DNA of 64,000 bases from an uncultured Bacillales bacterium (GTDB taxonomy: Bacteria; Bacillota_I; Bacilli_A; RFN20; CAG-826), in assembly GCA_946409515.1 (NCBI GenBank), contig CAMJWS010000004.1, positions 36,013-100,012 of the forward strand, written 5' to 3'. Shown here one piece after another: positions 1 through 42,024 of this stretch; position 1 is the stretch's first letter; each line of letters begins with the position of its first letter. The notes below the pieces were generated by a model that was not told where the DNA came from, did not search any database, and saw nothing but the letters and a program-made list of their open reading frames with translations. The translations under genes were made by a program, and so were the position numbers.

Positions 1-1724
1 ATTTCGCATTCGGCATGTAAGACGTCTTTGTCTTTTTCATTAGCAAGGACAAAGCCTTCTGGTCTGATAGCAACAGAGACTTCTTGATCTTTAATGCCTT
101 TGGCTTCACCGACACAGTCTTCACCAACGTAAATCTTTCCGTCTTTAACGGCGCCTTTGAAGACATTGATTGGTGGGGTGCCTAAGAATTGGGCAACGAA
201 TAAGTTTGCAGGGCTGTTATAAACTTCTTGTGGTGCACCCATTTGTTGCATTTCACCAAGTTTCATAACAACAATTTTATCGGAAATGGACATTGCTTCT
301 TCTTGGTCGTGAGTAACGAACACGGAAGTAATACCTGTTTCTTGTTGAATTCTTCTAATTTCTTCACGGGTTTGTAATCTTAAACGAGCATCTAAGTTAG
401 ATAATGGTTCATCTAAGAGTAAGACACGTGGGTGTTTAACTAACGCTCTGGCGATAGCGACACGTTGTTGTTGACCACCGGATAATTGATTTGGTTTTCT
501 TTCCAAATATTCATCAACTTGAACGAGTTTAGCGGTATCGTAAACGATATCTCTTCTTTCTTCTTTTGTTAATTTACGGTGGGCAATGGCTTGCGCTGTA
601 TCTAAAGTGATATCACTGAGTTCTAATTGTTCCGCAAGTTCGTCCATGACTTGTTTAGCGGTTTCAGTGGATGTTCTATGTAATTTGAAATAAATCTTTG
701 TGTGTTCTTTATCGTAGTAAAGTTTCATGTCGGTGATCTTCAAATTGTGTTTCTTGAAGAAATCTCTAACAAACTTTTGATTTTCAACGTTCACAACATT
801 ACTAACGAAGTAACGAGCATCTTCCATAGGAACACTGTTGGAGATAGCTTCAAAGCATTCTTGTAAGCGGGAATGCAATAAGGATTTAACACGCGCCACT
901 AAATCGAAACCACGTTTACCACGGGAAATAACGATTTCGCCTGGATTACCGATTGGTTTAATAGCTTCTCTAATGGCTCTGATTGTGTCGTCCATTTTTG
1001 GTAAGTCAAAGTCTTTACCTAATCTTGATTTGAATGTTAAATCAATGGTCTCTTTTTCACCGATTTTATTAACGGTGGCTCTGACGGTTGAATCGAATAA
1101 AGCTTCAGATGTTTGGACCTCTTCAACGTTGGTTAATTTAGCATCGATGATTTTTGGGAAATTATCGACGAATAAATTCTTACTAGCAGGAGCAACGTTT
1201 TTAAGTAAAATAGTGAGCTTAAGATTTTCACCTTCTAAAGAAGAAGTGATTTGGAATTGCTTTTTGTTCAAGCCGACACGTTTGCAAAGAGAATCGACTG
1301 ATTTGAGAATACCATCAAGGACATCTCTCTTCTTCATTTGATACTCATAATTGAGGGTAAAATCAAAGAAGGTAACGAGAGGAATCTCAACTTGGAGATT
1401 TGTTAATGGGAATTCAATGTTCTTATAGATAGTCATATGAGGATAAAGAGCATAGTTTTGGAAGACTAAGCCAATACCTCTTTTTTCTGGAGATAAATTA
1501 GTGACTTCTTGATCACCGAACCAAACTTCACCAGAAGTTGGGGTTTGTAAACCTGAAATCATGTAAAGAGTTGTGGATTTACCACATCCTGAAGGTCCTA
1601 ATAAACCAACAAGAGTGCCATCATCAACGTTAAAGTTCAAATCTTTAACAGCGATTGTGTCACGAATATTCTTACGTGCGTCACCAGGGAAAATTTTAGT
1701 TAAATCTTTAATTCTAATTTCCAT
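1..1724 (-). CDS. ABC transporter ATP-binding protein, MalK/UgpC/MsmX-like (CUT1-type), 3' end runs off the window. About 250 aa are inserted between the Q-loop region and the signature motif.
   Basis: Reverse-strand translation from ATG at 1724 (RBS AAGGAG upstream) gives MEIRIKDLTKIFPG...LLGPSGCGKST (Walker A). Later come LSGGQQQRVAIARAL (signature), LLLDEPLSNLD (Walker B), VTHDQEEA (H-loop) and a C-terminal TOBE-like domain (...FLGTPPINVFKG...VAIRPEGF...). I checked every in-frame triplet from 1724 down to 3 and found no stop codon. A single ORF of at least 574 aa therefore leaves the window, which explains its absence from the ORF track. Confidence 0.8.
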   Translation of the reverse strand, partial: MEIRIKDLTKIFPGDARKNIRDTIAVKDLNFNVDDGTLVGLLGPSGCGKSTTLYMISGLQTPTSGEVWFGDQEVTNLSPEKRGIGLVFQNYALYPHMTIYKNIEFPLTNLQVEIPLVTFFDFTLNYEYQMKKRDVLDGILKSVDSLCKRVGLNKKQFQITSSLEGENLKLTILLKNVAPASKNLFVDNFPKIIDAKLTNVEEVQTSEALFDSTVRATVNKIGEKETIDLTFKSRLGKDFDLPKMDDTIRAIREAIKPIGNPGEIVISRGKRGFDLVARVKSLLHSRLQECFEAISNSVPMEDARYFVSNVVNVENQKFVRDFFKKHNLKITDMKLYYDKEHTKIYFKLHRTSTETAKQVMDELAEQLELSDITLDTAQAIAHRKLTKEERRDIVYDTAKLVQVDEYLERKPNQLSGGQQQRVAIARALVKHPRVLLLDEPLSNLDARLRLQTREEIRRIQQETGITSVFVTHDQEEAMSISDKIVVMKLGEMQQMGAPQEVYNSPANLFVAQFLGTPPINVFKGAVKDGKIYVGEDCVGEAKGIKDQEVSVAIRPEGFVLANEKDKDVLHAECE

Positions 1725-1735
1725 AATGTATCTCC

Positions 1736-3739
1736 TTAATTCGTTCCGTCGTCATCGACGTCTTCGTTTAATTTGAGTTTAATGATTCTTCTTCTTTCTT
1801 TATTGGTCTTAATGACACCGACCATGTATTTAATGAAGTAGCCAATGATAACAACCGACATTACTGAAAGAATGATAATGTAAGCATCGGCTGGGTTATA
1901 AACAACGATAGCGTTATTTAATGCACTCGCTCTTAAAATGATGAAGACGATATCGAATAACACCACTAAGCTACCAAATAAGAATAAAGCGGCTTTAGTG
2001 AAGTATGATTTGTTCTTCATTCTTCTGAATTCATCATTTTTATATTTATTCTTCAAATAGAAGTAGAGTCCGATTGTTGTACCAACAAAGACTGCGATAT
2101 AAGCGATTGCTAAGATGATTAAGAAAGCGTTTATATCAAATAGGTTAGCCTTTTCGGTATATGGCATGAGTGAATGATAACCAAATCTGGTAATGACATT
2201 ACTACGAGCGATTGGACCTTTTTGCGCTAATAAGTCTAATGTGACATATAAGCCAACAAATGAAACGGCTTTGATCTTATCAGCGGAGAAGTTAGGAGCG
2301 ATGTCACTATTCTTGAACAAGAATGAGACTCTATTACCTTTTTGTTTTTCTAATTTGAACTGTGCAACAGGAGTCACGATCTTAACGTCTTTTTGGACAT
2401 CTGCACCACCATCACGGTATGTAATTCTGAAACTACAAAGAGTTAAAGAAGTTAATCTATAACGGATTTTGAGTTTACCAGACTTAATATCGTTTAAGTG
2501 TGTATTGTAATAGTTAGATTTTAAGTGTTCGTAAATATTGGCTTCGCTAATATCAACATTTAAGTCGATCGCAGAGAAACCAGAGAAGGTTGATAAACCA
2601 GTGAATGAGCATTTGATGAAATCATTAATATCATAAGCTCTAGAGAAACCTTGGTTTGGTTGGATGCTATAAGCTTGGCTCAATTCTGGTTCAGTAATTG
2701 CAGTTTCACCAACTGTCTTAGCACGATAGATGTTGTGTAAGACTGTACTTGAGAAATCAATTTCTTCACCTTCTGCTAATGGGATATCGCAGTATAAGGA
2801 TTTTGTATAGTCATTGACTTGACGGCCAACACATTCGAATAATGAACTTGCAGATGTAGGAGCAAATTCAAAATAACGAGTTTCATTAGCGCCGTTAGCG
2901 TTAACTTTATATTCGAGAACGAGAGGTTTTTGTTCGCCACTCTTTGGATACCAGCCAATGATGAAGTTTTGTGTTTCATCACCGTATTTAGAAGCACCAG
3001 CTTTAGATAATGGTTCAGCTTTAGCGGCTGGGAAAGTAGCGCCATATTGAACTGTAGCACCATGATTCCAGTCAGCAGCCCAACCCTCTAAGTTAGCGGT
3101 TGGTTCAACCTTAAATACCATACCTTCTGGAATGTTTTGGAAGGACTCTGAATAGATTTCAGTAACTTCTTGAGGAATGGTAATAGAAGTAATATTTGTC
3201 CAATCTGGGACAACGTTAATGCCTAAACGAGTGACATCGAGATTGAAAATGTGGTTTCTTGTTAAAGAACGAGGAATAACGATGTCAGTAACACTTGATG
3301 TAGCGTTTAAGCTATAAACATAAGAATTGAAGTGAACAGGTTCGTATTCACCTTTTTCATAAGCTTCAGTAATTGCTTCTCTTTCTTCGGCGGTCTTGGT
3401 GTTGAAATCTTTAAGATATTCATCAAAACCGGCATCATCTGGCGCTAATAAGTAGGAAGAAGTTGCATCACACCAACCTTGACCACCAGTTGAGAACATA
3501 AAAGTAAAAGACTGCCCCATTGATGTCTTAGTGGATGAAGTCGCGGAAACCATGAGGTTACCATCTGGAATTTCAACTTCACCACTATAATCAGGAGCAG
3601 CGGCTTTTCTGTCTAAAAGACGTGGTTGGTTAAGAGATGCTGTTTTAGTATCATTCTTCGCTACGGGCGCGTTAAAAGATGACAACGAAAAAAGGCTTAT
3701 TAATCCTAGCAAACATGGAAGGACAAATTTTTTCACCAT
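1736..3739 (-). CDS. Secreted/surface protein (667 aa) with N-terminal signal peptide and a C-terminal three-helix membrane anchor; function unknown
   Basis: Start ATG at 3739 with GGAGG RBS; the upstream M codons of the 689-aa ORF lack an RBS. N-terminus MVKKFVLPCLLGLISLFSLSSF looks like a signal peptide. A large hydrophilic Thr/Ser/Asn-rich ecto-domain follows. The C-terminus has three hydrophobic helices (AFLIILAIAYIAVFVG..., KAALFLFGSLVVLF..., AYIIILSVMSVVIIGYFI...). Confidence 0.6.
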   Translation of the reverse strand: MVKKFVLPCLLGLISLFSLSSFNAPVAKNDTKTASLNQPRLLDRKAAAPDYSGEVEIPDGNLMVSATSSTKTSMGQSFTFMFSTGGQGWCDATSSYLLAPDDAGFDEYLKDFNTKTAEEREAITEAYEKGEYEPVHFNSYVYSLNATSSVTDIVIPRSLTRNHIFNLDVTRLGINVVPDWTNITSITIPQEVTEIYSESFQNIPEGMVFKVEPTANLEGWAADWNHGATVQYGATFPAAKAEPLSKAGASKYGDETQNFIIGWYPKSGEQKPLVLEYKVNANGANETRYFEFAPTSASSLFECVGRQVNDYTKSLYCDIPLAEGEEIDFSSTVLHNIYRAKTVGETAITEPELSQAYSIQPNQGFSRAYDINDFIKCSFTGLSTFSGFSAIDLNVDISEANIYEHLKSNYYNTHLNDIKSGKLKIRYRLTSLTLCSFRITYRDGGADVQKDVKIVTPVAQFKLEKQKGNRVSFLFKNSDIAPNFSADKIKAVSFVGLYVTLDLLAQKGPIARSNVITRFGYHSLMPYTEKANLFDINAFLIILAIAYIAVFVGTTIGLYFYLKNKYKNDEFRRMKNKSYFTKAALFLFGSLVVLFDIVFIILRASALNNAIVVYNPADAYIIILSVMSVVIIGYFIKYMVGVIKTNKERRRIIKLKLNEDVDDDGTN

Positions 3740-3814
3740 ATGAGTGGCCTCCAGCATTCCATTTTTATCATTTTTATTATACATACATATGCCTGCGCTA
3801 CGCAATATATTTTC

Positions 3815-4891
3815 TTAGTCGTAATTCCTGGTTTTAAAATCAACAGGTTTTTTATATGGCGTGGTCTTTTCGAGTTCAACTTCTTGAAAAGAAAAATAGA
3901 TTTTTGTTCTTTTCCCATCAACCTCGGTTAGACGTAACATATAGTCTTGGAAACCTTGTTTATTTTTAGAGAAAACCATAATTGAAAAAGAAATTATGAT
4001 TGGTAGTCCGAAAGTGAATAAAGATAGCACTAGAATTGCGAAGTAAAAGATCGCAAATCTTGCTAAGGTACGTGGTAAAGAAGGTGATAAGCAGTTAGAG
4101 TCTACTAAACCAATACCATATAAGGCTTTTCCAATAGTCATTCTACCACGTCTAAAGATGAATAATGGAACAAGATAAACGAGTAATCCTGTAAAGCAAT
4201 AAACGGCAAAGATATTAACCCAAAGCAACAAATTAGTTTGATAGTTAATAATATCCTTATAGTGAGGTACCACCACGACTAGATAAGCTTGTAAACGATT
4301 GTCAATATATGGTTGGTACGCTTTTTTATAATATTCGGTATAGATTTGGGAACTGACACTTTCCACTGATTCAAATAAGACTGGATTTTCCACTACTTCG
4401 TTAGATTCATTAACGATAAACATTGGAGTATTATTGTGGACCATAGTGTCTGCTAAACGATATTCGCGATAATCTTTAACTACTTCTTCATAGTTCTCAT
4501 TAGTGGCCACACTTTGAGCATAGCTCACAAATGTCTCAATTGCGTTTTTAGAACGCATCATTCTCGATTTAGCGGTTTGACCTTTATCGTAATTTAATAC
4601 AGAGATGATATCTCTTAAGACATTATCGTCATCATAAGCGTATAAGCCTGAATCTACTCTCATTTGGGTTAGTTCTTGTGATTTAGCTATATAGCCAGGC
4701 GTGTGTCTAATTATTTCACGTACACCTAAAAAGCACGCAACAAAGACGAAAATGAAAATCAAAATATCCACGAGATTAGCGAATATTCGATGAGTAAATT
4801 TAGGACGGTAATACAAAACATTAGTGTCTTGATTGCTGCCTGCTACTTCTGCATCAGAAACGACTTCATTAATATGGTCTTCCATGATCAA
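3815..4891 (-). CDS. RDD-family membrane protein with a ~170-aa extracytoplasmic insertion between TM1 and the C-terminal TMs
   Basis: RDD-like motifs: RIFANLVDILIFIF (R..A..D in TM1), RRGRMTIGKALYGIGLVD, and C-terminal GFQDYMLRLTEV. One N-terminal TM, a hydrophilic loop, then 2-3 C-terminal TMs. Overlaps the upstream gene by 4 nt. Confidence 0.6.
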   Translation of the reverse strand: MIMEDHINEVVSDAEVAGSNQDTNVLYYRPKFTHRIFANLVDILIFIFVFVACFLGVREIIRHTPGYIAKSQELTQMRVDSGLYAYDDDNVLRDIISVLNYDKGQTAKSRMMRSKNAIETFVSYAQSVATNENYEEVVKDYREYRLADTMVHNNTPMFIVNESNEVVENPVLFESVESVSSQIYTEYYKKAYQPYIDNRLQAYLVVVVPHYKDIINYQTNLLLWVNIFAVYCFTGLLVYLVPLFIFRRGRMTIGKALYGIGLVDSNCLSPSLPRTLARFAIFYFAILVLSLFTFGLPIIISFSIMVFSKNKQGFQDYMLRLTEVDGKRTKIYFSFQEVELEKTTPYKKPVDFKTRNYD

Positions 4892-6045
4892 ATCTTATAA
4901 CCTTTTGCACGATAAACATTATCCATCTCTTCGCTAGTTAGATATAGCGAGTTAGATAAGTAATCGGTAAGAGAACGATTATACTGGTTAAAAATTAAAA
5001 AGAAAAGACTAATTAATAATAAAATGCCTGAAAACACCGTTCCGTACAATAAATAATTCAATGTGAATAAAGTATTAAAAGGTACAAGCATTGATGGGAT
5101 AAGCATAATGCCTAATAAAGATGTGAATAAAGTATATAAAGCACTGGCCACTACCATTCTTCTTTTCGTATGATTCATAGAATAGAAATCCACTCTTTCG
5201 ATTTTCATAAAAAGCATCGCTAAAGTTTTTCTATTCTTATTTATTAAAGGAAAGATAAGGAATAATCCTGACCAAACAATAACGTGAGAAATATAAGCAC
5301 AAACAGTCATGAGGTTTCCATGATATGTCTCAAGCTCTTTAATACGGCTTTTGCATTCTAAGAAAGAACAAGTTTCGCCATCATAATGTAAGTCGTTCTT
5401 TTCAATGTCATTCATGACCTCTGCTAAAAGGGGATTAAAGAGACTATTAGATATATCCTTATAATACTTCTGACCGGTTTCACCCATATCATCTTTTGGA
5501 TCATAGTAAGCGTATAGTTCGTTTTTAACCTCTATTTTTAAATTATACTCTTTTGTGACATCATTATATTCAAAGTAATTATCCTTCTTGTTATAGTGGT
5601 CAAAACTATCGTAATAAGTTTGTTCTTTATTTCTAATATCGTGATAGAAATGATAGATAGTATCGTTTTCCTTTTTATGACCATATTGAGGTACTTTGCT
5701 ATCAATACTTTCTTCATTATCTAAAACGAAATAACTTAAGAAACAACGATATGTATAATCCACTCCTGCAGTCACATCTGTACGATCAAAACCACTATCA
5801 CGTAATAGCACTTTAGAATTGTAATAATGATCATACATATCGAGCGTGGTTAAAATATGTTCTTCATTTTTAGCGTTATAATTTGTCGCAGCTTTACCAA
5901 TTGGCGCAGCGGCAATATTAAAAATAAGGTAAGTTAAAATAAAGTGTATGAAGAAATCAGCGAGGAAAACTAAGATCCTTTTACCCTTTTTCAAAGGATG
6001 AATATCAATATAATCTTCTTGCTTTATTGTCTCTTCTTCAGTCAT
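4888..6045 (-). CDS. RDD-family membrane protein, paralog of the adjacent gene, with a ~190-aa Tyr/Asp/Lys-rich extracytoplasmic insertion
   Basis: KRILVFLADFFIHFILTYLIF (R..A.D), NKNRKTLAMLFMKIERVD, and C-terminal RSLTDYLSNSLYL. Same topology as the 3815..4891 product. Confidence 0.6.
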   Translation of the reverse strand: MTEEETIKQEDYIDIHPLKKGKRILVFLADFFIHFILTYLIFNIAAAPIGKAATNYNAKNEEHILTTLDMYDHYYNSKVLLRDSGFDRTDVTAGVDYTYRCFLSYFVLDNEESIDSKVPQYGHKKENDTIYHFYHDIRNKEQTYYDSFDHYNKKDNYFEYNDVTKEYNLKIEVKNELYAYYDPKDDMGETGQKYYKDISNSLFNPLLAEVMNDIEKNDLHYDGETCSFLECKSRIKELETYHGNLMTVCAYISHVIVWSGLFLIFPLINKNRKTLAMLFMKIERVDFYSMNHTKRRMVVASALYTLFTSLLGIMLIPSMLVPFNTLFTLNYLLYGTVFSGILLLISLFFLIFNQYNRSLTDYLSNSLYLTSEEMDNVYRAKGYKI

Positions 6046-6051
6046 AACCTA

Positions 6052-7173
6052 CTATAATTCTATTAATATATCCTTAATTGCGTCGAGTTTTTCACTTTCA
6101 ACACCGATCACTTCATTTAGATATTTATATGTCTTTTCTTGTAAGGTTTCGCCTTCATAAGCTTTAAGTGTCGCACCATATCGATCATCGATATCTTCAG
6201 TTTTACATATACCGCTTATTTTAGCGAAGTTGGAGAATAAATAATCACGATATAGATATTCTTCTTCCATTCCACATAAAGCTTCGATTAAATAGGCCAT
6301 ACAGCCTGTTCTATCCTTACCAATCGCGCAGTGGAAATCAATTGGATAATTGTTTTTATCACTAAGTAGTTCAAAGAACTCCTTAATACGCGCTGGATTA
6401 TCGTATAAGAAAGAATTACGTTCACCAACATAAGTGAGAACATTTTCACCACCATAATACATTGGTAAATGGTTATAGGAGACCGTTTCACCTAACGGTG
6501 AGGCTTTGATATTACCATTTTCTCCTGGTCTTCTTAAGTCGATTTCTGTTTTAATTTTTAAAGTGTTTAATAAAACATCTTTAGACTGTTCATCTAATAA
6601 AGAAATACCATCTGCATCTTCGTCTTCGTTGAAGCGTCCACTACGGTAGATTAAACCTTGTTTAATGCCATGCCCGCCTAAATCACGAATGTTCATGACA
6701 TTGTTGACGTATAAGTTACGTGGACCCTTTTTTGCGGTCTTAAAGAGGTGTCCATTGCCTTTAAACTGTACACTATCGCTATAATAAGCGGTTACATCAT
6801 AGGAATAAAACGTATCTAATTTTAAATTATACAGTTCAAATCCATCTGGATTAGTAATTCCACTTTTAGTGAACCAATGTTCGCCTTCTTCAAAGACATC
6901 AACGATATAGTACTTAGGCTTTTTATTGTTGTTTGCTTTAGAGCCTTTCCAATTAATAAAGTATGGTACGGGTTGTTCTTTTGATGAACTACCCGCTGCA
7001 ATACCGTTCGTGGTCATATAATCTTCCGCATTGATGTATTTATTTTGTAATTCTGTATGGAAGTCAAAAGTGAATTCCTGTTTTTCAAACTTGAAATCAA
7101 AAGATGTTGGTTGGCACGCAGTAAGGGCAGTAAGTAGGAACAATGATCCTGATAAAGAAATAGATTTTTTCAT
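6052..7173 (-). CDS. Lipoprotein with C-terminal cysteine-phosphatase domain (protein-tyrosine-phosphatase-like, Y_phosphatase3/PF13350-type)
   Basis: Signal peptide plus lipobox MKKSISLSGSLFLLTALTAC. N-terminal beta-rich domain ending in the conserved PRNLYV motif. Then NVMNIRDLGG and the catalytic P-loop FHCAIGKDRTG (HCX5R). Confidence 0.75.
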   Translation of the reverse strand: MKKSISLSGSLFLLTALTACQPTSFDFKFEKQEFTFDFHTELQNKYINAEDYMTTNGIAAGSSSKEQPVPYFINWKGSKANNNKKPKYYIVDVFEEGEHWFTKSGITNPDGFELYNLKLDTFYSYDVTAYYSDSVQFKGNGHLFKTAKKGPRNLYVNNVMNIRDLGGHGIKQGLIYRSGRFNEDEDADGISLLDEQSKDVLLNTLKIKTEIDLRRPGENGNIKASPLGETVSYNHLPMYYGGENVLTYVGERNSFLYDNPARIKEFFELLSDKNNYPIDFHCAIGKDRTGCMAYLIEALCGMEEEYLYRDYLFSNFAKISGICKTEDIDDRYGATLKAYEGETLQEKTYKYLNEVIGVESEKLDAIKDILIEL

Positions 7174-29640: not shown

Positions 29641-30861
29641 TCATTTCAAGTTTTGTTTGATGTAAGCTGCAAACGCTAATGAACCAGTAACTAGGATCGC
29701 ATCATCTGGATAATTTGTTAATAATTCATTAAGTGTTTCAAGAGCGTTTTCTTTGAATGAATAATCGTCCAAATAAAGGAAATAATCTTCTTCAGTTCTC
29801 GCTCTTTCATGAGGGAATGTAGTTAAGATAATGTCTTTACTGTATTCTCCTAAATAAGCAATCATTCTTTCAATATTCTTATCTCTGAAGCAGGCAAATA
29901 GAACGTGAATTGCGCGATTTCCAACCACGTTTTGCAGAGATTTTGTAAGATTTAACACGCCTTCAGGGTTATGAGAGCCATCGACCACAAGTAAAGGTGA
30001 GTCTTTGAGAATTTCCATTCTAACTGGCATATAGGTATTGGCTAAACCTGCTCTAATAGATTCTTCACTAACCGGGAAAGATTCGTTTAACTTATTGACC
30101 ACTTCTAAAGCAATACACGCATCTTTAAGAGAGTATGTTGCAGCGGAATTAATTCTTAGATTAAAAAGAGTGCCATAAGCAAAACTAAAGCCTTTGTTTT
30201 CATACACTACTTTTGCAGGTTCAACAGAGACTGATAATTGACATTCATTCTCTCTAGAAACTTCAACGATTGTGTTGATAGCTTCATCATCTAAGATACC
30301 TGTTATGACAGGAACTCCGTGCTTAATAATGCCTGCTTTTTGGTAAGCAATTTCACAAATTGAACGGCCTAAAAATGCAGTATGTTCAAGACTGATAGAA
30401 GTAATAACTGAGGCGATTGGAGTGAAGATATTTGTCGCATCAATTTCACCACCCATGCCACATTCAATAATCGCTAAATCACATTTGTTTCTAGCGAAAT
30501 ATGTAAAGGCAATAAATGTTTGAATTTCAAATGGTGATAAAGAGTATTTATCAATGGTTTTAGCGAATTCTTCTAAGATAGAAACCATCTCATTATCAGT
30601 GATGTTCTGGCCATTAATGTTAATCATTTCGTTAACAACTTCTAAATATGGAGATGTGAATAAACCGACTTTATAACCTTGAGCGCGATAAATATTAGCA
30701 AGATAATTAGCGGTACTACCTTTACCATTGCTACCTGCAATGTGAATAGAAGGAACGTTATAAGAAAAACCGACTTTCTTTAGAAATGAGTCGAAGTTTT
30801 CTCTTTGGTATTCACCATGACCAACGTTGTCAAAATATGTTTTTAAATCTATCTTGCTCAT
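29641..30861 (-). CDS. folC: Folylpolyglutamate synthase/dihydrofolate synthase (Mur ligase family)
   Basis: HIAGSNGKGST P-loop of Mur ligases. ATG at 30861 with GGAGAAG RBS, overlapping the smpB stop. The longer ORF start at 30918 would overlap smpB by 56 nt. Confidence 0.85.
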   Translation of the reverse strand: MSKIDLKTYFDNVGHGEYQRENFDSFLKKVGFSYNVPSIHIAGSNGKGSTANYLANIYRAQGYKVGLFTSPYLEVVNEMININGQNITDNEMVSILEEFAKTIDKYSLSPFEIQTFIAFTYFARNKCDLAIIECGMGGEIDATNIFTPIASVITSISLEHTAFLGRSICEIAYQKAGIIKHGVPVITGILDDEAINTIVEVSRENECQLSVSVEPAKVVYENKGFSFAYGTLFNLRINSAATYSLKDACIALEVVNKLNESFPVSEESIRAGLANTYMPVRMEILKDSPLLVVDGSHNPEGVLNLTKSLQNVVGNRAIHVLFACFRDKNIERMIAYLGEYSKDIILTTFPHERARTEEDYFLYLDDYSFKENALETLNELLTNYPDDAILVTGSLAFAAYIKQNLK

Positions 30862-30862
30862 A

Positions 30863-31321
30863 TTAATCTTCTCCGTTTTTAATGCTGCGTTTAATATCTC
30901 TTTGTTTAATGGTTTCACGCTTGTCGTAAAGCTTTTTACCTTTCGCTAATGCGATTTCCATTTTGGCTTTGCCTCTCTTCAAATACACGCGTGTAGGCAC
31001 GATTGTGAAGCCATCTCGTTTAGCTTTTTCTTCAAACCATTTAATTTCTTTTTTGTGAAGTAATAACTTGCGTGTTCTTAATGGATCGTGATTAAAGATA
31101 TTACCTTTATCATATGGATTGATGTGCATATTAAGAACTTCCATCTCACCACCTCTAATAACGATATAAGCGTCGTTAAGAGAGCAGCCATGTGTACGTA
31201 AAGATTTGATTTCAGTGCCTACTAAAACAAGACCACACTCTGTAAATTCACTTAAAAAGTAATTAAAGTGTGCCTTCTTATTACTAGTAATGATTTTAAT
31301 GCCAGTATCTGTCTTATTCAT
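30863..31321 (-). CDS. smpB: SsrA-binding protein SmpB
   Basis: ...AHFNYFLSEFTECGLVLVGTEIKSLR... SmpB family. ATG at 31321 with GAGGG RBS. Confidence 0.9.
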   Translation of the reverse strand: MNKTDTGIKIITSNKKAHFNYFLSEFTECGLVLVGTEIKSLRTHGCSLNDAYIVIRGGEMEVLNMHINPYDKGNIFNHDPLRTRKLLLHKKEIKWFEEKAKRDGFTIVPTRVYLKRGKAKMEIALAKGKKLYDKRETIKQRDIKRSIKNGED

Positions 31322-33176
31322 TTGAGCCCTCACGAGAAATGGTTTGTAGCACCTTTGTAAATCCTACATCAAAGAATGCATATAAATGGTTATTCTCTTT
31401 TTTATAAAAAATAGAGAATGCTATCATATAGAAGAATATAACGAAAATTGTAAATAATAAAATAGAGAATGTATCAAGCGTGAAATTAAGTTGAAGAGCT
31501 AAACTAACAAGGCTACCCACAACCACAGAAGAAGCAAACGGAATAATGAATTCTTTTCCTAAGAATAATAGTTTGCTATCACCACGTTTCTTGCTCATTA
31601 AAATGAGAGTAACAAAGGCACCAATTAGTGCAGCCGTTGCAACTGAAGCGACAATAATATAAATGACTAAGAGTGTTGGATGAGAATAGATTGGACGGAT
31701 TGAGAATGAAGTAGCAAAGGCCACAATCAAAGCTAATAAGAATGTGCCGACAAAATATAACACATCCCCTCTATGTGGTTTGACTAATGGAGCATTTTGC
31801 TCTTGTAAGTCTTTATTAAGCTCGACGAAATACTTTTCTTTACTAGCATTAACAACTGGTAAGAAGAAGATCATGGTTAAGTATGTACCTTCAATATTTG
31901 GCACAAAGAACATTGTGGATTCAGTGAAGCTATGAGCTAATGCACCAAGGAAGCAAATTCCGTAAATATAAGCGACACGGTACTTCTTATTCTTAATTAA
32001 ATGGACGATTCCAATGAAGAATGTGGATAGCAATGAAAGATAGAATAGCAAGCCAAATAAACCGTGTCTTAAAGTGATTTCAACAATGCCGTTATGAGCA
32101 CTTCTAGCTTCAAAACCACCATTCTGCAATGCATAGTATTTTGTGAAAATGGCGTTACCTGTCTTGTATCCTAAGCCGAATATCAAATCGACTGGTTTTT
32201 CACAAAGTAGATGGAAAACCGATGCCCATATGCCTGTTCTTGATGTTAATGTGCTGTAATCTTTTTTGAAGATATGAGTTTCCATGAATGACCATAAATT
32301 AACGAATAATGGTACATCAAGACTGATCATCATTGTGATGAATCCAAGCAAGGTCAATAGCACGCTGAAATAAATAAATAACAATCTAGCGGCATATCTT
32401 TTACGATCTTTAAACTTGGAAAGGATTTCATATAAGGTATAAGCAATAATTGCGATAGCACTAATAAACACTGATGTTGTGCATGATGAGAAGACAATCA
32501 TGATAAAGAAGTGAATCATTAACGAATAGTAGAAAGGATTGAACTTCCTGATGCTCAAAATAATGCAACTCAAGACAGCTACAAGGATGATATTTGCCCA
32601 AACATTGGAATTATAAATAACGAAAGCTAAACCACCACCGGTATATGTATTTGTGAAAATAGCGATAATGTCTTTGAATTCCATGACAATATCTGCAAGA
32701 GTACAAGTAAAAACCCCGATGACGTATGCAAACGTTAACCATTTTAACCATCTTCTAGATATTGAATAGCGATTAAAGACGAAGAGAATACCATATAAAA
32801 CAGCACACCAAGTGATAATCTGGAGCGTGAATGAAACCTTTTCTTGAACAGTAAATGAAACAAACACTACATCATTATCTAGTGTTAAGAAAGAACGGTC
32901 ACCTTGCCACCAAACAGTGGCAATAGAAACTAAACCGAATATAGTAATAATTGGAAGCAGAACTTTATCAATAGTAATCTTGTTTCTATTTCGCTCTCTA
33001 ACGTAGTAGACAATAAGTAAGAAAATCACGAACATTGAAAGCATAATTAAAGAATCGATACTCATGCCTCCCATGTGATCAGAGCTGAATAACGCAAAGT
33101 TTTCAGCTAGTAAGCAAGAGAACACGATGATAAACCAAAATAGTAAATATGTGAGAGTAAATCTTAATTTTCCCAT
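31314..33176 (-). CDS. Polytopic membrane protein with O-antigen ligase/polymerase (Wzy_C-like) domain
   Basis: 620 aa with more than 12 TM. Central loop ...FEARSAHNGIVEITLRHGLFGLLFYL... resembles the Wzy_C/WaaL family R...HN...E.G..G motif. Confidence 0.6.
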   Translation of the reverse strand: MGKLRFTLTYLLFWFIIVFSCLLAENFALFSSDHMGGMSIDSLIMLSMFVIFLLIVYYVRERNRNKITIDKVLLPIITIFGLVSIATVWWQGDRSFLTLDNDVVFVSFTVQEKVSFTLQIITWCAVLYGILFVFNRYSISRRWLKWLTFAYVIGVFTCTLADIVMEFKDIIAIFTNTYTGGGLAFVIYNSNVWANIILVAVLSCIILSIRKFNPFYYSLMIHFFIMIVFSSCTTSVFISAIAIIAYTLYEILSKFKDRKRYAARLLFIYFSVLLTLLGFITMMISLDVPLFVNLWSFMETHIFKKDYSTLTSRTGIWASVFHLLCEKPVDLIFGLGYKTGNAIFTKYYALQNGGFEARSAHNGIVEITLRHGLFGLLFYLSLLSTFFIGIVHLIKNKKYRVAYIYGICFLGALAHSFTESTMFFVPNIEGTYLTMIFFLPVVNASKEKYFVELNKDLQEQNAPLVKPHRGDVLYFVGTFLLALIVAFATSFSIRPIYSHPTLLVIYIIVASVATAALIGAFVTLILMSKKRGDSKLLFLGKEFIIPFASSVVVGSLVSLALQLNFTLDTFSILLFTIFVIFFYMIAFSIFYKKENNHLYAFFDVGFTKVLQTISREGSNE

Positions 33177-37891: not shown

Positions 37892-40276
37892 CTAGTAGAC
37901 CAATCTCACTTGTTCAGTGAACAACAAGCGATAATCAAAATTATTATGAACAAATTCGATTTCTAAGTTAGTATCGTTAGCAATGTTATAACCAACAATA
38001 TCAAAGTACTGACCTGTTGTTGTTAAACCTAATTGTCCATATGTCTGACCGTTTGTAAGAAGAATGCTTTGGGTAGCGCCATTAATCTTTACTTCATATT
38101 TGCTACTATCGAACGTTTGAGAAGAATGTGTGCTGTAAGACATCTTTATATTGAATTGAAGTTTAACTTCACCTGCCTTTGCAGGAATATCCCATTTGAA
38201 TGTGGTTTTGACCTTGTTATTGCCAGAGCCGCCGATTTTACCATCGCTGTCAATTGAACCATCTATGGATGTGTAGTCAGTAAACTTAATAGCAATATAC
38301 TTTTTACCACAGTCGCATAAATAAGTAGTGACTTGTTTGCCAGCTTTATTTGTGATTGGAGTTTGTGCGACATAGTTATGGGTTGTATGTTCGCCACCTA
38401 CACCACCACCTTGAGAGCCACCACCTTGAGCAGTAGCGGCATCAAAGATATAAATACCGCCAATGTTCATCGAATTTGAGGTGCCTGTGACCTTAATTGT
38501 GTGGCTACCCTCTGAAATATCAACTTCGCCTAGAATAACCGGGTAATAGTTATATCTTGAGCCACACTTGCCCATTCTTGCATCTGAATATGTTTGATCT
38601 TTCATGCTGATGGAAGTGTTGTCTAATGAGCAACCGACTGCATCCGCTATTTTTTTAGAAGAAGATGAATCACCATTTCCTAAATAGGCAACAACTTGAC
38701 CCTTATATGCTTTAGAGGCATTAAAAGTATAGCTAACTGATTGAGAAGAACTATTTAAGGTGTAATAGTTATCTGGATTATTTCTATCAGAGGCATCAGT
38801 TTTAAGGCTTGTTCCTGAAGCAGTTAATGTGTTAGCGGGCGCAATTACTTGACCTGCGTCATTGTCTTTTGCTACTTGTCCTTCTGTCAAATTAGCGATG
38901 ACGGTATCTAATGTAGTCTTAGAAACGCCAATTGAAAGTAGCATGTTGTAAACTTTATTTTTGAATGTTTTGCCTGACATGTTTTGGATGTCATTAATAT
39001 AGTTTTGAATATTATCTTTACCAGCTTTTGGGCCAATATATCTCTTTTCTTGGATCTTACCAAAGTTAGAGAATAAGTAGTCTTGATATATTTCATTTAG
39101 GGAAACACCAAGTAAACCAGATAATAAGATTGCACATAAGCCAGTTCTATCTGTGCCAATACGGCAATGAAAGAAAACAGGATAGTTATTTGAATCGCCT
39201 AATAAGTTAAAAAAGTTTTTAACAGATTCGGTATTTCTAGAGAAGTGATGAGAACCACCGTCATAATCCATTAAGAAGTCTTTTACAGTTGTACCGCTTA
39301 ACTTAAGGTTATATTTAGTGCCATCAGCTACATTTACTTCGGTCTTCACTTTTAAGTGTTGAAGCATTTCTTTTTTGCCATCTTCTGTAATCACAGTGCT
39401 ATAGTCATACTGGTACCCACTTGTTCTATAGACAAGGCCTTGCTTCATTTTGCCACCATCTTCAAGAACTCTTCCACCCATATCGCGGCAGTTAGTCATG
39501 CCACCGATGGTGAGATTTCTTGGATAAGTTGTATCTACATCAAAGAATCTAATTTCAGTCGATTCTTTTTGTCCATCAGAGAAGTTAGCCACTAATTTAT
39601 AGTAGTTTCTACCTAAATATGGATTGTAATAGGCTACTGACTTAGTTGATGTCTTGATTTCATAACCATCGCTTAAGTCTTCTTTTTGACCGCTTATGAA
39701 GCTGTAGTTAGAAACTGTTTTACCACTAGGAGCGGTGTAGTTCCACGAAAGATTGACTGGTAACGAATCTGAAAGGTGTTGCGTGCCATCTGGATATTGA
39801 TTCTCAGGCATTTGATCATAATTACCAGAATAAGATAAATAAGCCTTCTGATCGGCAGTATGAATCTCTACTGGAGCGTTAAACTCTGTGATGTTAGAAA
39901 AGTTACCTTCGCCAACGGGAGGCTGGCTAGTAGATGAACTGCTAGAAGAGCTCGATGAAGAAGAACTACTAGAGCCGCTGCTTGATGATGGCTTGCTACT
40001 AGAACTACTACTAGAAGAAGATTTGCTACTGCTCGAACTAGAACCGCTACTCTTGCTAGAGCTAGAAGAACTGCTCTTGTTTGAATTTGAACTAGATTTG
40101 TTTGAACTACTAGATGCAGACTCGCTAGACTCAGAATCACTTGAAGATATTGAACCGCTTTCTATAACACTAGAAGGTTCTTTGCTTTCCTGACTGCTAT
40201 TAGCCACTACAGTACATGAAGAAATAATTAGCGTTGATAAAAAAGCTAAACTTAGAAACATTTTTCTTTTTTTCAT
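37892..40276 (-). CDS. Large surface lipoprotein (794 aa): ~85-aa Ser-rich linker, PRNL beta-domain, cysteine-phosphatase domain (PF13350-like) and two C-terminal beta-rich, possibly carbohydrate-binding, domains
   Basis: Lipobox LIISSC. Ser-rich tract SSSNKSSSNSNKSSSSSSSK.... The motifs TYPRNLTIGGMTNCRDMGG and FFHCRIGTDRTG (HCX5R) follow, and then a long Gly/Thr/Asn-rich C-terminal region. Confidence 0.75.
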   Translation of the reverse strand: MKKRKMFLSLAFLSTLIISSCTVVANSSQESKEPSSVIESGSISSSDSESSESASSSSNKSSSNSNKSSSSSSSKSSGSSSSSSKSSSSSSSSSKPSSSSGSSSSSSSSSSSSSSTSQPPVGEGNFSNITEFNAPVEIHTADQKAYLSYSGNYDQMPENQYPDGTQHLSDSLPVNLSWNYTAPSGKTVSNYSFISGQKEDLSDGYEIKTSTKSVAYYNPYLGRNYYKLVANFSDGQKESTEIRFFDVDTTYPRNLTIGGMTNCRDMGGRVLEDGGKMKQGLVYRTSGYQYDYSTVITEDGKKEMLQHLKVKTEVNVADGTKYNLKLSGTTVKDFLMDYDGGSHHFSRNTESVKNFFNLLGDSNNYPVFFHCRIGTDRTGLCAILLSGLLGVSLNEIYQDYLFSNFGKIQEKRYIGPKAGKDNIQNYINDIQNMSGKTFKNKVYNMLLSIGVSKTTLDTVIANLTEGQVAKDNDAGQVIAPANTLTASGTSLKTDASDRNNPDNYYTLNSSSQSVSYTFNASKAYKGQVVAYLGNGDSSSSKKIADAVGCSLDNTSISMKDQTYSDARMGKCGSRYNYYPVILGEVDISEGSHTIKVTGTSNSMNIGGIYIFDAATAQGGGSQGGGVGGEHTTHNYVAQTPITNKAGKQVTTYLCDCGKKYIAIKFTDYTSIDGSIDSDGKIGGSGNNKVKTTFKWDIPAKAGEVKLQFNIKMSYSTHSSQTFDSSKYEVKINGATQSILLTNGQTYGQLGLTTTGQYFDIVGYNIANDTNLEIEFVHNNFDYRLLFTEQVRLVY
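39930..40190 (-). repeat. Low-complexity Ser-codon tandem repeat (AGC/AGT/TCT/TCG-rich) encoding the poly-Ser linker
   Basis: Visible as gctagaagaact/gctactagaa-type reiterations. The +strand ORF 39888..40193 and the small -strand ORF 39868..40140 are alternative-frame artefacts of this tract. Confidence 0.7.
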
Positions 40277-40383: not shown

Positions 40384-42024
40384 TTAGGCAGCGTGATCAG
40401 CGATGGTAATAGAGCCAACGTTGAATGTGCCATTCTTAGAGCTGATTTCCACTGTATGTTCACCAGCAGTTAATTCATAATTGCCTAAGATGTTGAACAT
40501 ATAGCCGTATCTATCTTTGCTTCTTGTTTGTCCGAAGCCAGCGGTCCATAAGTTCTTTGTGTTAGAAATGGTTTGTTCGACACCATCAATCTTTAATGTG
40601 ATGGAAGCTGATAATTTTGTGGATGTGTTTTGGTCAACAGAACCTGTGTAACCCATATAGACAATAACATCTTTTTTACCAGCAGTTGTTGTTGCTTTGA
40701 AGCTAGCTTTTTTGCCACTAGCTAAAGCGTAGTAGGTAGCTGGGGCTTTATAATCTGAGCTTGTTGACTTTGTGCCATCAGAAGTTAAGCCATCACCTTC
40801 ACCAACTTTAAATGTTTCTGGGATTTGAGCTTTTTCACCGATTGTCATGAAATCGATAATCTTGTCTAACTTTTCAGCAGAAACACCGATCATACGGAGA
40901 GCAAGGTAGACTTGTTCTTGGAATGTTTCACCTGGTAAGGCTAAGATTTCATCGATATATTTTCTAATATCATCACCATTGGTATCTGGGGTTTTGCCAG
41001 GATATCTTTGGTTATCGATTGGAGCAAAATTTGAGAAACCATAGTCTTGAAGTGCTTCATTAAATGGAACACCAAGTAAACCATTAATCATGATACCTGT
41101 GATACCTGTTCTATCTGTACCGATACGGCAGTGATAGAAGAGTGGGTAGTTATTTTCATCGGCTAAAACATCCATAACTTGTCTAATTTTCACAGAGTTT
41201 CTAGCTAAGTTAGAATATGGAACTGCGCCATAATCCATATAGCAGTTTTTAAGATTTACACCAGATAAGTTAACATTATTGTCATCTTTATCTGCAACGT
41301 TGATTTCTGTCTTAATGCCAAATTGTTCGGTTAAGATTCTTTTTGCTTCATCATTAGATGGAGTACCATTGTCAAATTTGCTACCGCTACCACGATAGAT
41401 TAAGCCTTGTTTGATTTTGCCACCGGCATAGGTTGTTCTACCACCCATATCACGGAAGTTTGGCATATTGCCAACATATAAGTTTCTTGGAGCTTGTTCT
41501 GTCACTTTGAAGGTTTTAACTTCACTTGATTGTTTTTGACCTGTTGTGAAGTTAGCAACGATTTTGAAATAGTTTGTGCCCAAGAAAGAATTGTAGAAAC
41601 TAATTGTAGTTTCTTTTGTACCTTGGACAACGTATGGATCGCTTAAATCCTCGTATTGACTAAAGACTAATGAGTAGTTCTTTAATTCATAACCATCTGG
41701 AGCTTCATATTCCCAGTTAAGTGTTGTTTTTTCAGGAGTGGAAACGTTTTTGTTACCGTAAGCATCACAAGAATCTAAGTCACTCTTTGTAATTTGGTAG
41801 TATTGTTTGGAAAGATTTAAATACTTTAATTGATTGGCGGTGTGAATTTCTTGAACTGTTTCGAGTTCATCATCATCAAAATTATAAGTACCACCAGTTA
41901 TTTCATCTGGATCTTGACTGCTAGGTTGGGCGCTACTACTCTTACCACCGGCTGGTTGATTGTCACAGCCAACCACGGATAAAGCAAGGATAAGAAGCGA
42001 ACCTAAAACGAATTTTTTGTTCAT
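40384..42024 (-). CDS. Surface lipoprotein (546 aa) with PRNL beta-domain, cysteine-phosphatase domain (PF13350-like) and a C-terminal beta-rich domain
   Basis: Lipobox LSVVGC. Motifs APRNLYVGNMPNFRDMGG and LFYHCRIGTDRTG. The C-terminal GEHTVEISSKNGTFNVGSITI is homologous to the C-terminus of the 794-aa paralog. Confidence 0.75.
   Translation of the reverse strand: MNKKFVLGSLLILALSVVGCDNQPAGGKSSSAQPSSQDPDEITGGTYNFDDDELETVQEIHTANQLKYLNLSKQYYQITKSDLDSCDAYGNKNVSTPEKTTLNWEYEAPDGYELKNYSLVFSQYEDLSDPYVVQGTKETTISFYNSFLGTNYFKIVANFTTGQKQSSEVKTFKVTEQAPRNLYVGNMPNFRDMGGRTTYAGGKIKQGLIYRGSGSKFDNGTPSNDEAKRILTEQFGIKTEINVADKDDNNVNLSGVNLKNCYMDYGAVPYSNLARNSVKIRQVMDVLADENNYPLFYHCRIGTDRTGITGIMINGLLGVPFNEALQDYGFSNFAPIDNQRYPGKTPDTNGDDIRKYIDEILALPGETFQEQVYLALRMIGVSAEKLDKIIDFMTIGEKAQIPETFKVGEGDGLTSDGTKSTSSDYKAPATYYALASGKKASFKATTTAGKKDVIVYMGYTGSVDQNTSTKLSASITLKIDGVEQTISNTKNLWTAGFGQTRSKDRYGYMFNILGNYELTAGEHTVEISSKNGTFNVGSITIADHAA

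Follow-up and report, generated by a model that had tools for sequence, protein, structure and literature searches.

A MalK-type ABC importer ATPase of uncultured gut and rumen Bacilli carries a 274-residue insert predicted to fold as three ferredoxin-like units within its nucleotide-binding domain

We analysed a 64,000-nucleotide stretch of DNA from an uncultured Bacillales bacterium (assembly GCA_946409515.1, contig CAMJWS010000004.1, positions 36,013 to 100,012 of the forward strand; hereafter, the window), and the gene at its left edge was found to encode a MalK/UgpC/MsmX-type ATP-binding cassette (ABC) importer ATPase whose nucleotide-binding domain (NBD) is split by 274 residues. This insert is predicted to be a confidently folded module of three ferredoxin-like units with no low-complexity segment, and inserts of graded size occupy the same loop in a large clade of gut and rumen Bacilli. 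The MalK-type importer ATPase is a known protein; curated libraries have no entry for the inserted domain, and no discussion of it was found in the literature. As for function, we infer that the insert may be a built-in regulatory or effector-sensing module. This proposal is our tentative preference and, even when counted together with the anatomical claims, which are much firmer, it stays somewhat short of probable; if a docking role is included, the reading becomes probable.

The minus strand of window positions 1-1724 contains 574 codons without a stop, and the frame runs off the left edge. Residues are numbered here from the ATG at 1724-1722. The full-length relatives consist of 635-637 amino acids (aa), and ca. 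61 C-terminal residues lie beyond the edge; the stop-free frame, the homologues in the PDB and the complete open reading frames (ORFs) in ten metagenome-assembled genomes (MAGs) identify the gene as a partial coding sequence for the first 574 of ca. 635 residues. A phmmer search against all PDB sequences yielded MalK-type ATPases at E values of 1e-64 to 1e-80 (named matches: 2yyz, 2it1, SugC, MalK of T. litoralis and E. coli, MsmX and PotA). All the catalytic motifs are present in the canonical order. The N-terminal part of the NBD (residues 1-108; window 1401-1724, minus strand) carries Walker A (GPSGCGKST, residues 43-51; 1572-1598) and the Q-loop (Q89; 1458-1460) and ends with a helix closing in FPLT. 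The C-terminal part, which includes the rest of the helical subdomain (residues 383-520; 165-578, minus strand), carries the LSGGQ signature (residues 414-418; 471-485), Walker B (LLLDE, residues 435-439; 408-422), the D-loop (S442) and the H-loop (H472; 309-311). It is followed by the start of a MalK-type C-terminal regulatory (TOBE/OB-like) domain (residues 521-574; 3-164, minus strand), which is cut by the window edge and is complete in the 635-aa homologues; its residues 521-564 align with 2yyz as far as position 291 of the latter. Its sequence marks the protein as an ATPase subunit from a type I (CUT1/sugar-type) ABC importer, with a canonical motor domain. The Pfam model ABC_tran matched as two stretches with nothing between them, and weak AAA_21 matches were also obtained. 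Since the insert splits the match, every NCBIfam score was below its cut-off, the best being that of the UgpC subfamily (327.7 bits against a cut-off of 432).

The borders of the insert were defined by the alignments to solved structures. Residues 22-108 aligned to residues 15-101 of 2yyz, a Thermotoga sugar ATPase, and residues 383-564 aligned to its residues 103-291; the same two-stretch pattern was seen for every MalK-type PDB chain. The insert thus comprises residues 109-382 (N109-H382; window 579-1400, minus strand), lies in a loop of the helical subdomain and replaces a single loop residue in the PDB alignment; besides the alignment break at 108/383, the confidence of its predicted fold and its low ratio of nonsynonymous to synonymous substitution (dN/dS), both described below, delimit it as a feature. 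The offset from E. coli MalK after the insert is +280 in the PDB alignment, and that before it is taken to be +7, on the MalK Walker A numbering that we assumed. These offsets place the insert between E. coli MalK residues 101 and 103. No solved ABC ATPase aligned over the insert, either by phmmer against the PDB or by Foldseek with a full-length model. These alignments agree with a preliminary description of this DNA, which had recognised a MalK/UgpC-like NBD with Walker A at residues ca. 40-50, a large insertion between the Q-loop helix and the signature, and Walker B, the H-loop and a C-terminal regulatory domain after it. Some of its details needed revision: the insertion was put at ca. 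250 aa instead of 274, the signature, which is indeed shifted far downstream, was put at residue ca. 390 instead of 414-418, and the ENQKFV segment said to precede the insertion lies within it.

The insert had also been described as hydrophilic and devoid of any obvious motif. It contains 41 Lys and Arg and 40 Asp and Glu among its 274 residues, but it models as ferredoxin-like domains and carries the conserved motifs NLxVExPLxxF and SxALFD, so that this part of the description does not hold. When the insert alone was modelled by AlphaFold2 from 13 sequences, the mean pLDDT was 87.9, and in a full-length run the insert showed pLDDT values of 83-92 with the same order of elements. It thus models as a separate folded alpha/beta module, a point which the preliminary description had left to structure prediction. 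The conserved entry segment NLxVExPLxxF (residues 109-119; window 1371-1400, this and all following insert features being on the minus strand) leads into unit 1 (residues 119-206; 1107-1370), in which beta strands at 119-129, 157-164, 167-177 and 196-206 and helices at 136-150 and 179-191 are predicted in the order beta-alpha-beta-beta-alpha-beta. The motif S-x-A-L-F/Y-D (residues 206-211; 1092-1109) follows, between units 1 and 3, and leads to a lone strand at residues 210-218 (1071-1097). Unit 2 (residues 226-311; 792-1049) is predicted to be a complete beta-alpha-beta-beta-alpha-beta unit (beta 226-236, alpha 241-255, beta 260-269, beta 272-283, alpha 284-297 and beta 302-311). After it come the elements alpha 313-325, beta 329-338, beta 341-351, alpha 353-367 and beta 369-378 (residues 313-378; 591-788), and these, together with the lone strand, which is assigned as their beta1 from the order of elements, appear to form a third beta-alpha-beta-beta-alpha-beta unit, unit 3.

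In a Foldseek search of the PDB with the insert model, the top matches (probability ca. 1.0) were the tandem ferredoxin-fold designs 4hhu and 4ney together with tandem-ACT regulators (1u8s, SerB2, the acetohydroxyacid synthase (AHAS) small subunit and aspartokinase regulatory domains); RRM and EF-G/LepA domains were also among the matches. At the level of sequence, profiles of Pfam, NCBIfam and the PDB gave nothing significant against the insert; the best match in the curated libraries, to a Noc protein (E = 0.009), was judged to be spurious. Comparison of the three modules by hhalign gave only an overlap artefact, so that there is no sign of a recent internal duplication in the insert. With the full-length model, Foldseek matched only ca. 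180 residues, corresponding to the C-terminal NBD and the regulatory domain, and the C-terminal half of the NBD showed 43-56% structural-alignment identity with solved MalK-type structures.

Scanning one genome per GTDB species with a single insert sequence recovered ten loci, all in rumen or gut MAGs labelled as uncultured Bacillales, Erysipelotrichaceae or Bacilli. The insert was 50-98% identical across these loci, and each of them carried a single uninterrupted ORF of 635-637 aa. The preliminary description had read the gene as one polypeptide without an in-frame stop, conceding that a sequencing error might have made or removed a stop or that the insert might be a separate gene in homologues; the frame is open in the window, ten independently assembled MAGs carry the same intact ORF, and the insert was not a separate gene in any homologous locus examined. 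When the window gene was compared with five of the ten loci by the Nei-Gojobori method, dN/dS was 0.05-0.14 for the insert, 0-0.09 for the NBD halves and 0.04-0.17 for the regulatory domain. The insert thus diverges faster than the NBD core, under a constraint similar to that on the regulatory domain, and it is not distinct in GC content. In close pairs (the window gene against the loci L003 and L007), the synonymous divergence (dS) of the NBD-coding parts (0.06-0.18) was 2- to 4-fold lower than that of the insert-coding part (0.24-0.62), and codon constraint, or gene conversion or recombination with paralogous ATPases, could be responsible. A 167-aa ORF also lies within the insert-coding region on the opposite strand (window 838-1341, plus strand); since the minus-strand frame is under strong purifying selection, this is most likely a chance antisense ORF.

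To find relatives irrespective of the insert, an insert-deleted query was composed of residues 1-108, residues 383-574 and a C-terminus borrowed from a homologue. Nearly all of its best 120 matches were long proteins, falling into classes of 541-553, 606, 613-615 and 631-638 aa, with one protein of 488 aa. The inserts of these relatives ranged from 127 to 274 aa, and all were located at one junction, between FPLT and (Y/H)RKL. All classes except the 488-aa one share the entry segment, unit 1 with D134 and G138-I, the SxALFD motif, the strand after it and the C-terminal alpha-beta-beta-alpha-beta part of unit 3 (D.K.Y...FFK.KK). Among 21 diverse inserts, L110, V112, E113, L116 and F119 of the entry segment as well as G138, L146, L209 and D211 were invariant; D134, which lies with G138 in the beta1-alpha1 loop of unit 1, was conserved in at least 90%. 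The 541-553-aa classes lack residues ca. 226-321 of the window protein, which correspond to unit 2, and this unit was seen only in the 631-638-aa class; the 606- and 614-aa classes contain an additional helical, coiled-coil-like stretch within unit 1. The 488-aa protein (P0065, on a 58-kb contig) has an unrelated, mostly helical-looking insert of 127 aa at the same junction, and this sequence suggests that the loop is a hot spot for independent insertions. From the order of elements and the segment missing in the 541-553-aa classes, we infer that the simplest reading of the models is a two-unit core (units 1 and 3), with a further unit (unit 2) nested in the beta1-alpha1 loop of the second core unit in the window lineage. 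The insert would then contain one domain within another, itself lodged within the NBD.

Searches with the insert alone had suggested a very rare element: a word-indexed search returned 15 fragments, and a profile search of 1.84 billion 50%-identity representatives returned 15 matches. Extreme rarity was rejected when the insert-deleted query revealed a large clade, comprising at least about a hundred 90%-identity clusters from gut and rumen Bacilli on contigs of ca. 0.9-1.0 Mb. The few matches are explained because the representatives merge all insert classes, the NBD halves of which are more than 50% identical, and because the word index missed even the sequences behind the profile used (A4). 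A tblastn search of plasmids with the insert gave no match.

In the window, the ATPase gene is preceded by a Shine-Dalgarno sequence (AAGGAG, 1732-1737, minus strand), 7 nucleotides 5' of the ATG, which overlaps the TAA of the upstream gene, and this overlap indicates an operon with translational coupling. Directly upstream on the same strand are a gene for a 689-aa protein (1736-3805), two RDD-family membrane protein genes (3815-4891 and 4888-6045) and a Y_phosphatase3 lipoprotein-like gene. The 689-aa protein, identified as part of the cluster by synteny, has an N-terminal signal or transmembrane segment, an external region of ca. 500 aa and three C-terminal transmembrane helices, and no Pfam family matched it; its transmembrane region showed a weak match, below the cut-off, to the F1-like-ATPase-associated membrane protein MSC_0624 of Mycoplasma (E = 0.004). 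A signal-anchored surface protein of 524-717 aa and two to four RDD proteins were observed in front of the insert-bearing ATPase in the window, L001, L012, L014 and L015, and RDD genes precede the ATPase in every insert class examined. The genes downstream of the ATPase fall beyond position 1 of the window and were read from L005, a 97%-identical locus, and from L001, L012, L014 and L015. In L005, two BPD_transp_1 permeases, two SBP_bac_1/8 binding proteins, a staphylococcal nuclease (SNase) homologue and a 157-aa protein are encoded; a permease pair and solute-binding proteins also accompany the ATPase in the other four loci, and the SNase homologue lies downstream of it in all five. A cluster of the same make-up recurs in the 553-, 606- and 614-aa classes: two to four RDD genes and a gene for a large membrane protein of unknown type, followed by those for the ATPase, a pair of permeases, a pair of binding proteins and SNase. 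Among the loci of these classes, two are on contigs of 0.88-1.03 Mb, and one comes from Candidatus Alectryobacillus merdavium. Throughout the loci examined, the clade is linked with a scavenging operon that includes a nuclease.

The position of the insert is what makes a regulatory role attractive. In MalK, the 'HD region (residues 99-112)' is external and flexible, belongs to the most mobile parts in the ATP cycle and touches the coupling helices of MalF and MalG (PMC3150292), and the loop hosting the insert belongs to this segment. It is also known that ATP binding makes the helical subdomain rotate relative to the RecA-like core (PMC7367683). A rigid module of ca. 30 kDa that is anchored by two adjacent strands would be placed to influence both this rotation and the cleft receiving the coupling helices; alternatively, it might signal the rotation to some other component. 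As an accessory domain built into the ATPase, it would tune ATP hydrolysis and the coupling between the NBDs and the transmembrane domains (TMDs). Since the transporter has a single ATPase gene, there would be two modules per transporter, flanking the NBD dimer on either outer side. The operon with two permeases, two binding proteins and SNase would serve the scavenging of nuclease products or sugars, as proposed for a Mycoplasma operon discussed below.

Many enzymes are regulated by ferredoxin-like or ACT domains that bind effectors, as is the methionine importer ATPase MetN through its C2 domain, which is ferredoxin-like and comparable with the units of the insert. Like the ACT and tandem-ACT proteins (GcvR-like 1u8s, SerB2, the AHAS small subunit and aspartokinase beta), the insert is predicted to consist of repeated beta-alpha-beta-beta-alpha-beta units, and its unit 1 has a conserved Asp and Gly in the beta1-alpha1 loop, the usual position of the ACT ligand loop. 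In contrast to those proteins, the module is inserted within an NBD and not appended, and the likeness is one of predicted fold. A second parallel is provided by MlaB, a small alpha/beta STAS protein: it docks on MlaF's helical subdomain, well away from the ATP site, and the ATPase requires it to be stable and active (PMC7367683). Both are small alpha/beta accessory domains at a helical subdomain and proposed regulators of an ATPase, whereas MlaB is a separate polypeptide of STAS fold in a lipid transporter and the module described here is covalently inserted and ferredoxin-like. The MalK, UgpC, MsmX and SugC ATPases of CUT1 importers share with the window protein the catalytic motifs, the C-terminal regulatory domain and the association with two BPD_transp_1 permeases and SBP_bac_1/8 proteins, and differ from it in that their helical subdomain is not broken by a 274-aa three-unit module at MalK 101-103. 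Large insertions between Walker A or the Q-loop and the signature occur as the coiled coils of SMC and Rad50, the insertion domains of UvrA and the arm of ABC-F proteins. The same topological region thus tolerates insertions there, a likeness reflected in the weak AAA_21 matches of the window protein; however, none of them is a transporter, and what they have inserted are coiled coils, zinc modules or helical hairpins.

Several observations weigh against a regulatory or sensing role. A C-terminal MalK-type regulatory domain is already present, so that a second regulatory module is not obviously needed. Length and content of the insert vary widely among close relatives: it spans 127-274 aa and includes a helical stretch in the 606- and 614-aa classes. 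Such variation would fit a scaffold or spacer as well as a specific sensor. The TM-scores of the Foldseek matches are low (0.2-0.4), because the query is a multi-domain one with differing inter-domain angles. In the 21 diverse inserts, no ACT or other Pfam model matched, and no ACT family was found at E values up to 0.1 (one member gave TH_ACT at E = 0.12); the likeness to ACT therefore exists at the fold level only, in a very common fold. In the full-length model, the pTM was 0.56 and the N-terminal NBD showed pLDDT values of only 39-56 from a shallow, low-diversity alignment, so that the placement of the insert relative to the NBD is not fixed by the model, and its position relative to the membrane subunits is here deduced from the MalK alignment. 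[quoted passage not shown]

A structural or docking role without ligand sensing deserves the most serious consideration among the alternatives: the insert may be a scaffold that keeps the ATPase stably assembled with the permeases, or a tether for the RDD proteins, the 524-717-aa surface proteins or cytoplasmic enzymes. The insertion loop adjoins the NBD-TMD interface, the RDD and large membrane protein genes lie immediately 5' of the ATPase gene in the insert-bearing loci of every class examined, and conservation of the entry segment and SxALFD in inserts of variable length fits a conserved anchoring surface with a variable body. However, most of each upstream protein lies outside the cell or within the membrane, and the cytoplasmic tails are very short; such a role is possible, though we regard it as unlikely on balance.

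The ferredoxin-like fold is also that of RRM and EF-G domains, and the insert might accordingly be a nucleotide- or nucleic-acid-binding module which handles or senses imported SNase products. The SNase homologue found in the operon of all classes, the RRM and EF-G/LepA domains among the Foldseek matches and the uptake of precursors for nucleic acids proposed in the Mycoplasma literature (PMC3585158) would fit this idea. On the other hand, the net charge of the insert is near zero and is inconsistent in its relatives (pI 4.7-9.5, net -11 to +11), and this counts against a conserved surface for binding polyanions. No RNA- or DNA-binding family matched any of the 21 diverse inserts. Nucleic-acid binding is thus judged to be improbable.

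It is just as doubtful that the insert is a lineage-specific expansion which a permissive surface loop tolerates and which, being largely neutral, has no specific function. Such an expansion could account for the very different inserts taken up by the site (127 aa and mostly helical in P0065; 180-274 aa and alpha/beta elsewhere) and for the faster evolution of the insert than of the NBD core. A dN/dS of 0.05-0.14 over 274 codons, the intactness of the insert in all ten MAGs down to 50% identity, the invariance of its motifs across classes and its confidently predicted fold speak against neutrality, and a neutral insertion of ca. 0.8 kb is not what one would expect in lineages with chromosome-scale contigs of no more than ca. 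0.9-1.0 Mb.

An artefact or a mobile insertion (two genes joined by frameshift or fusion, a chimeric assembly, or an intein) has practically no likelihood, as one open frame is present in the window and in ten MAG assemblies, even though the gene is frameshifted or truncated in some metagenome fragments (P0001, P0004 and P0007) and two short database proteins lack the insert (P0031, 365 aa; P0099, 377 aa). In both of these proteins, the N-terminal half comes from a different ATPase and the C-terminal half is near-identical to the lineage of the window gene; their overall identity to the insert-deleted query is 82% (P0031) and 73% (P0099), and they read identically from the Walker B/D-loop onward. 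From their sequences, they are probably chimeric metagenome assemblies joined at the conserved LLLDEPLSNLDA region, although they could be real recombinants. Gene fusion and chimerism were ruled out by the intact ORF in the ten MAGs. An intein was rejected on three grounds: the junctions, which read Asn-Leu-Gln at the start of the insert and Ala-His at its end with Arg next, are not the Cys/Ser and His-Asn plus Cys/Ser/Thr of inteins; no Hint family matched in the window or in the 21 diverse inserts; and the predicted fold is alpha/beta.

The remainder of the window is ordinary chromosome, with rpoB- and rpoC-sized ORFs, L11, L1, NusG, an S12-S7-EF-G-EF-Tu operon, tRNA synthetases, RecA and RNase Y. 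Its long genes are uninterrupted under translation table 11, which implies that TGA is not a common sense codon and that the lineage, one of uncultured, Erysipelotrichaceae-like Bacilli MAGs from the rumen, is not a classical Mycoplasma reading TGA as Trp. Two adjacent MacB-like ABC_tran-FtsX fusions of 935 and 702 aa (48553-53461, minus strand) have uninterrupted NBDs; within the window, the insertion is therefore specific to the MalK-type ATPase. Three Y_phosphatase3 (tyrosine-phosphatase-like) paralogues of 373, 794 and 546 aa are encoded on the minus strand (6052-7173, 37892-40276 and 40384-42024), the first of which has a lipoprotein-like N-terminus and heads the transporter cluster. A gene for a Mur-ligase-like protein (425 aa) lies near one for a 620-aa Wzy_C/O-antigen-ligase-like membrane protein (29641-33176, minus strand), and these genes may bear on whether a small-genome lineage has retained some of its envelope synthesis.

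A comparable gene cluster is known from mycoplasmas. In M. agalactiae and most mycoplasmas of the hominis group, the genes for one ATPase and two permeases share a transcript with those for an SNase lipoprotein and a binding lipoprotein of the sugar type, and the two lipoproteins were proposed to feed nucleic-acid precursors to the transporter (PMC3585158). The homologous MPN134-136 system of M. pneumoniae was drawn as a glycerol-3-phosphate importer (PMC3178575). As in the MG187/MPN134 'UgpC' type of Mycoplasma and in MAG_5030-5070 of M. agalactiae, a lipoprotein or binding protein, SNase, one ATPase and two permeases occur together here; compared with the M. agalactiae operon, the ATPase comes first, the nuclease last and RDD genes stand in front, and, unlike Mycoplasma, the organism studied here reads its long genes with the standard code. 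We take MG187 and MPN134 to be ca. 585 aa long. In a phosphoproteome study, Mpn134 was modelled on E. coli MalK, and its Ser392 faces itself at the homodimer interface (PMC3293634). The self-facing serine of the window protein is the D-loop residue S442, equivalent to MalK S162, and this mapping implies that Mpn134 has ca. 220-230 extra residues upstream of the D-loop. This count and the shared operon arrangement lend indirect support to the remark in the preliminary description that inserted NBDs are characteristic of some Mollicute transporters. The insert-bearing clade probably extends to Mycoplasma. Literature searches for a described NBD insert in Mollicutes found no paper that discusses one, and the orthologous transporter of Mycoplasma has been modelled while the extra residues were ignored.

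The known regulation of ABC importers is exerted through C-terminally appended domains (MalK, MetN, ModC and OpuA) or by separate proteins (EIIAGlc, MlaB and PII). A folded multi-domain module in the loop that reports the nucleotide state to the coupling helices could represent a different way of controlling or using the power stroke. The series of two-unit, three-unit and helix-bearing inserts is, on this sequence and model evidence, a clean natural example of domain-in-domain-in-domain evolution. Because the insert is missing from Pfam and NCBIfam, its carriers fall below curated cut-offs and are annotated only generically.

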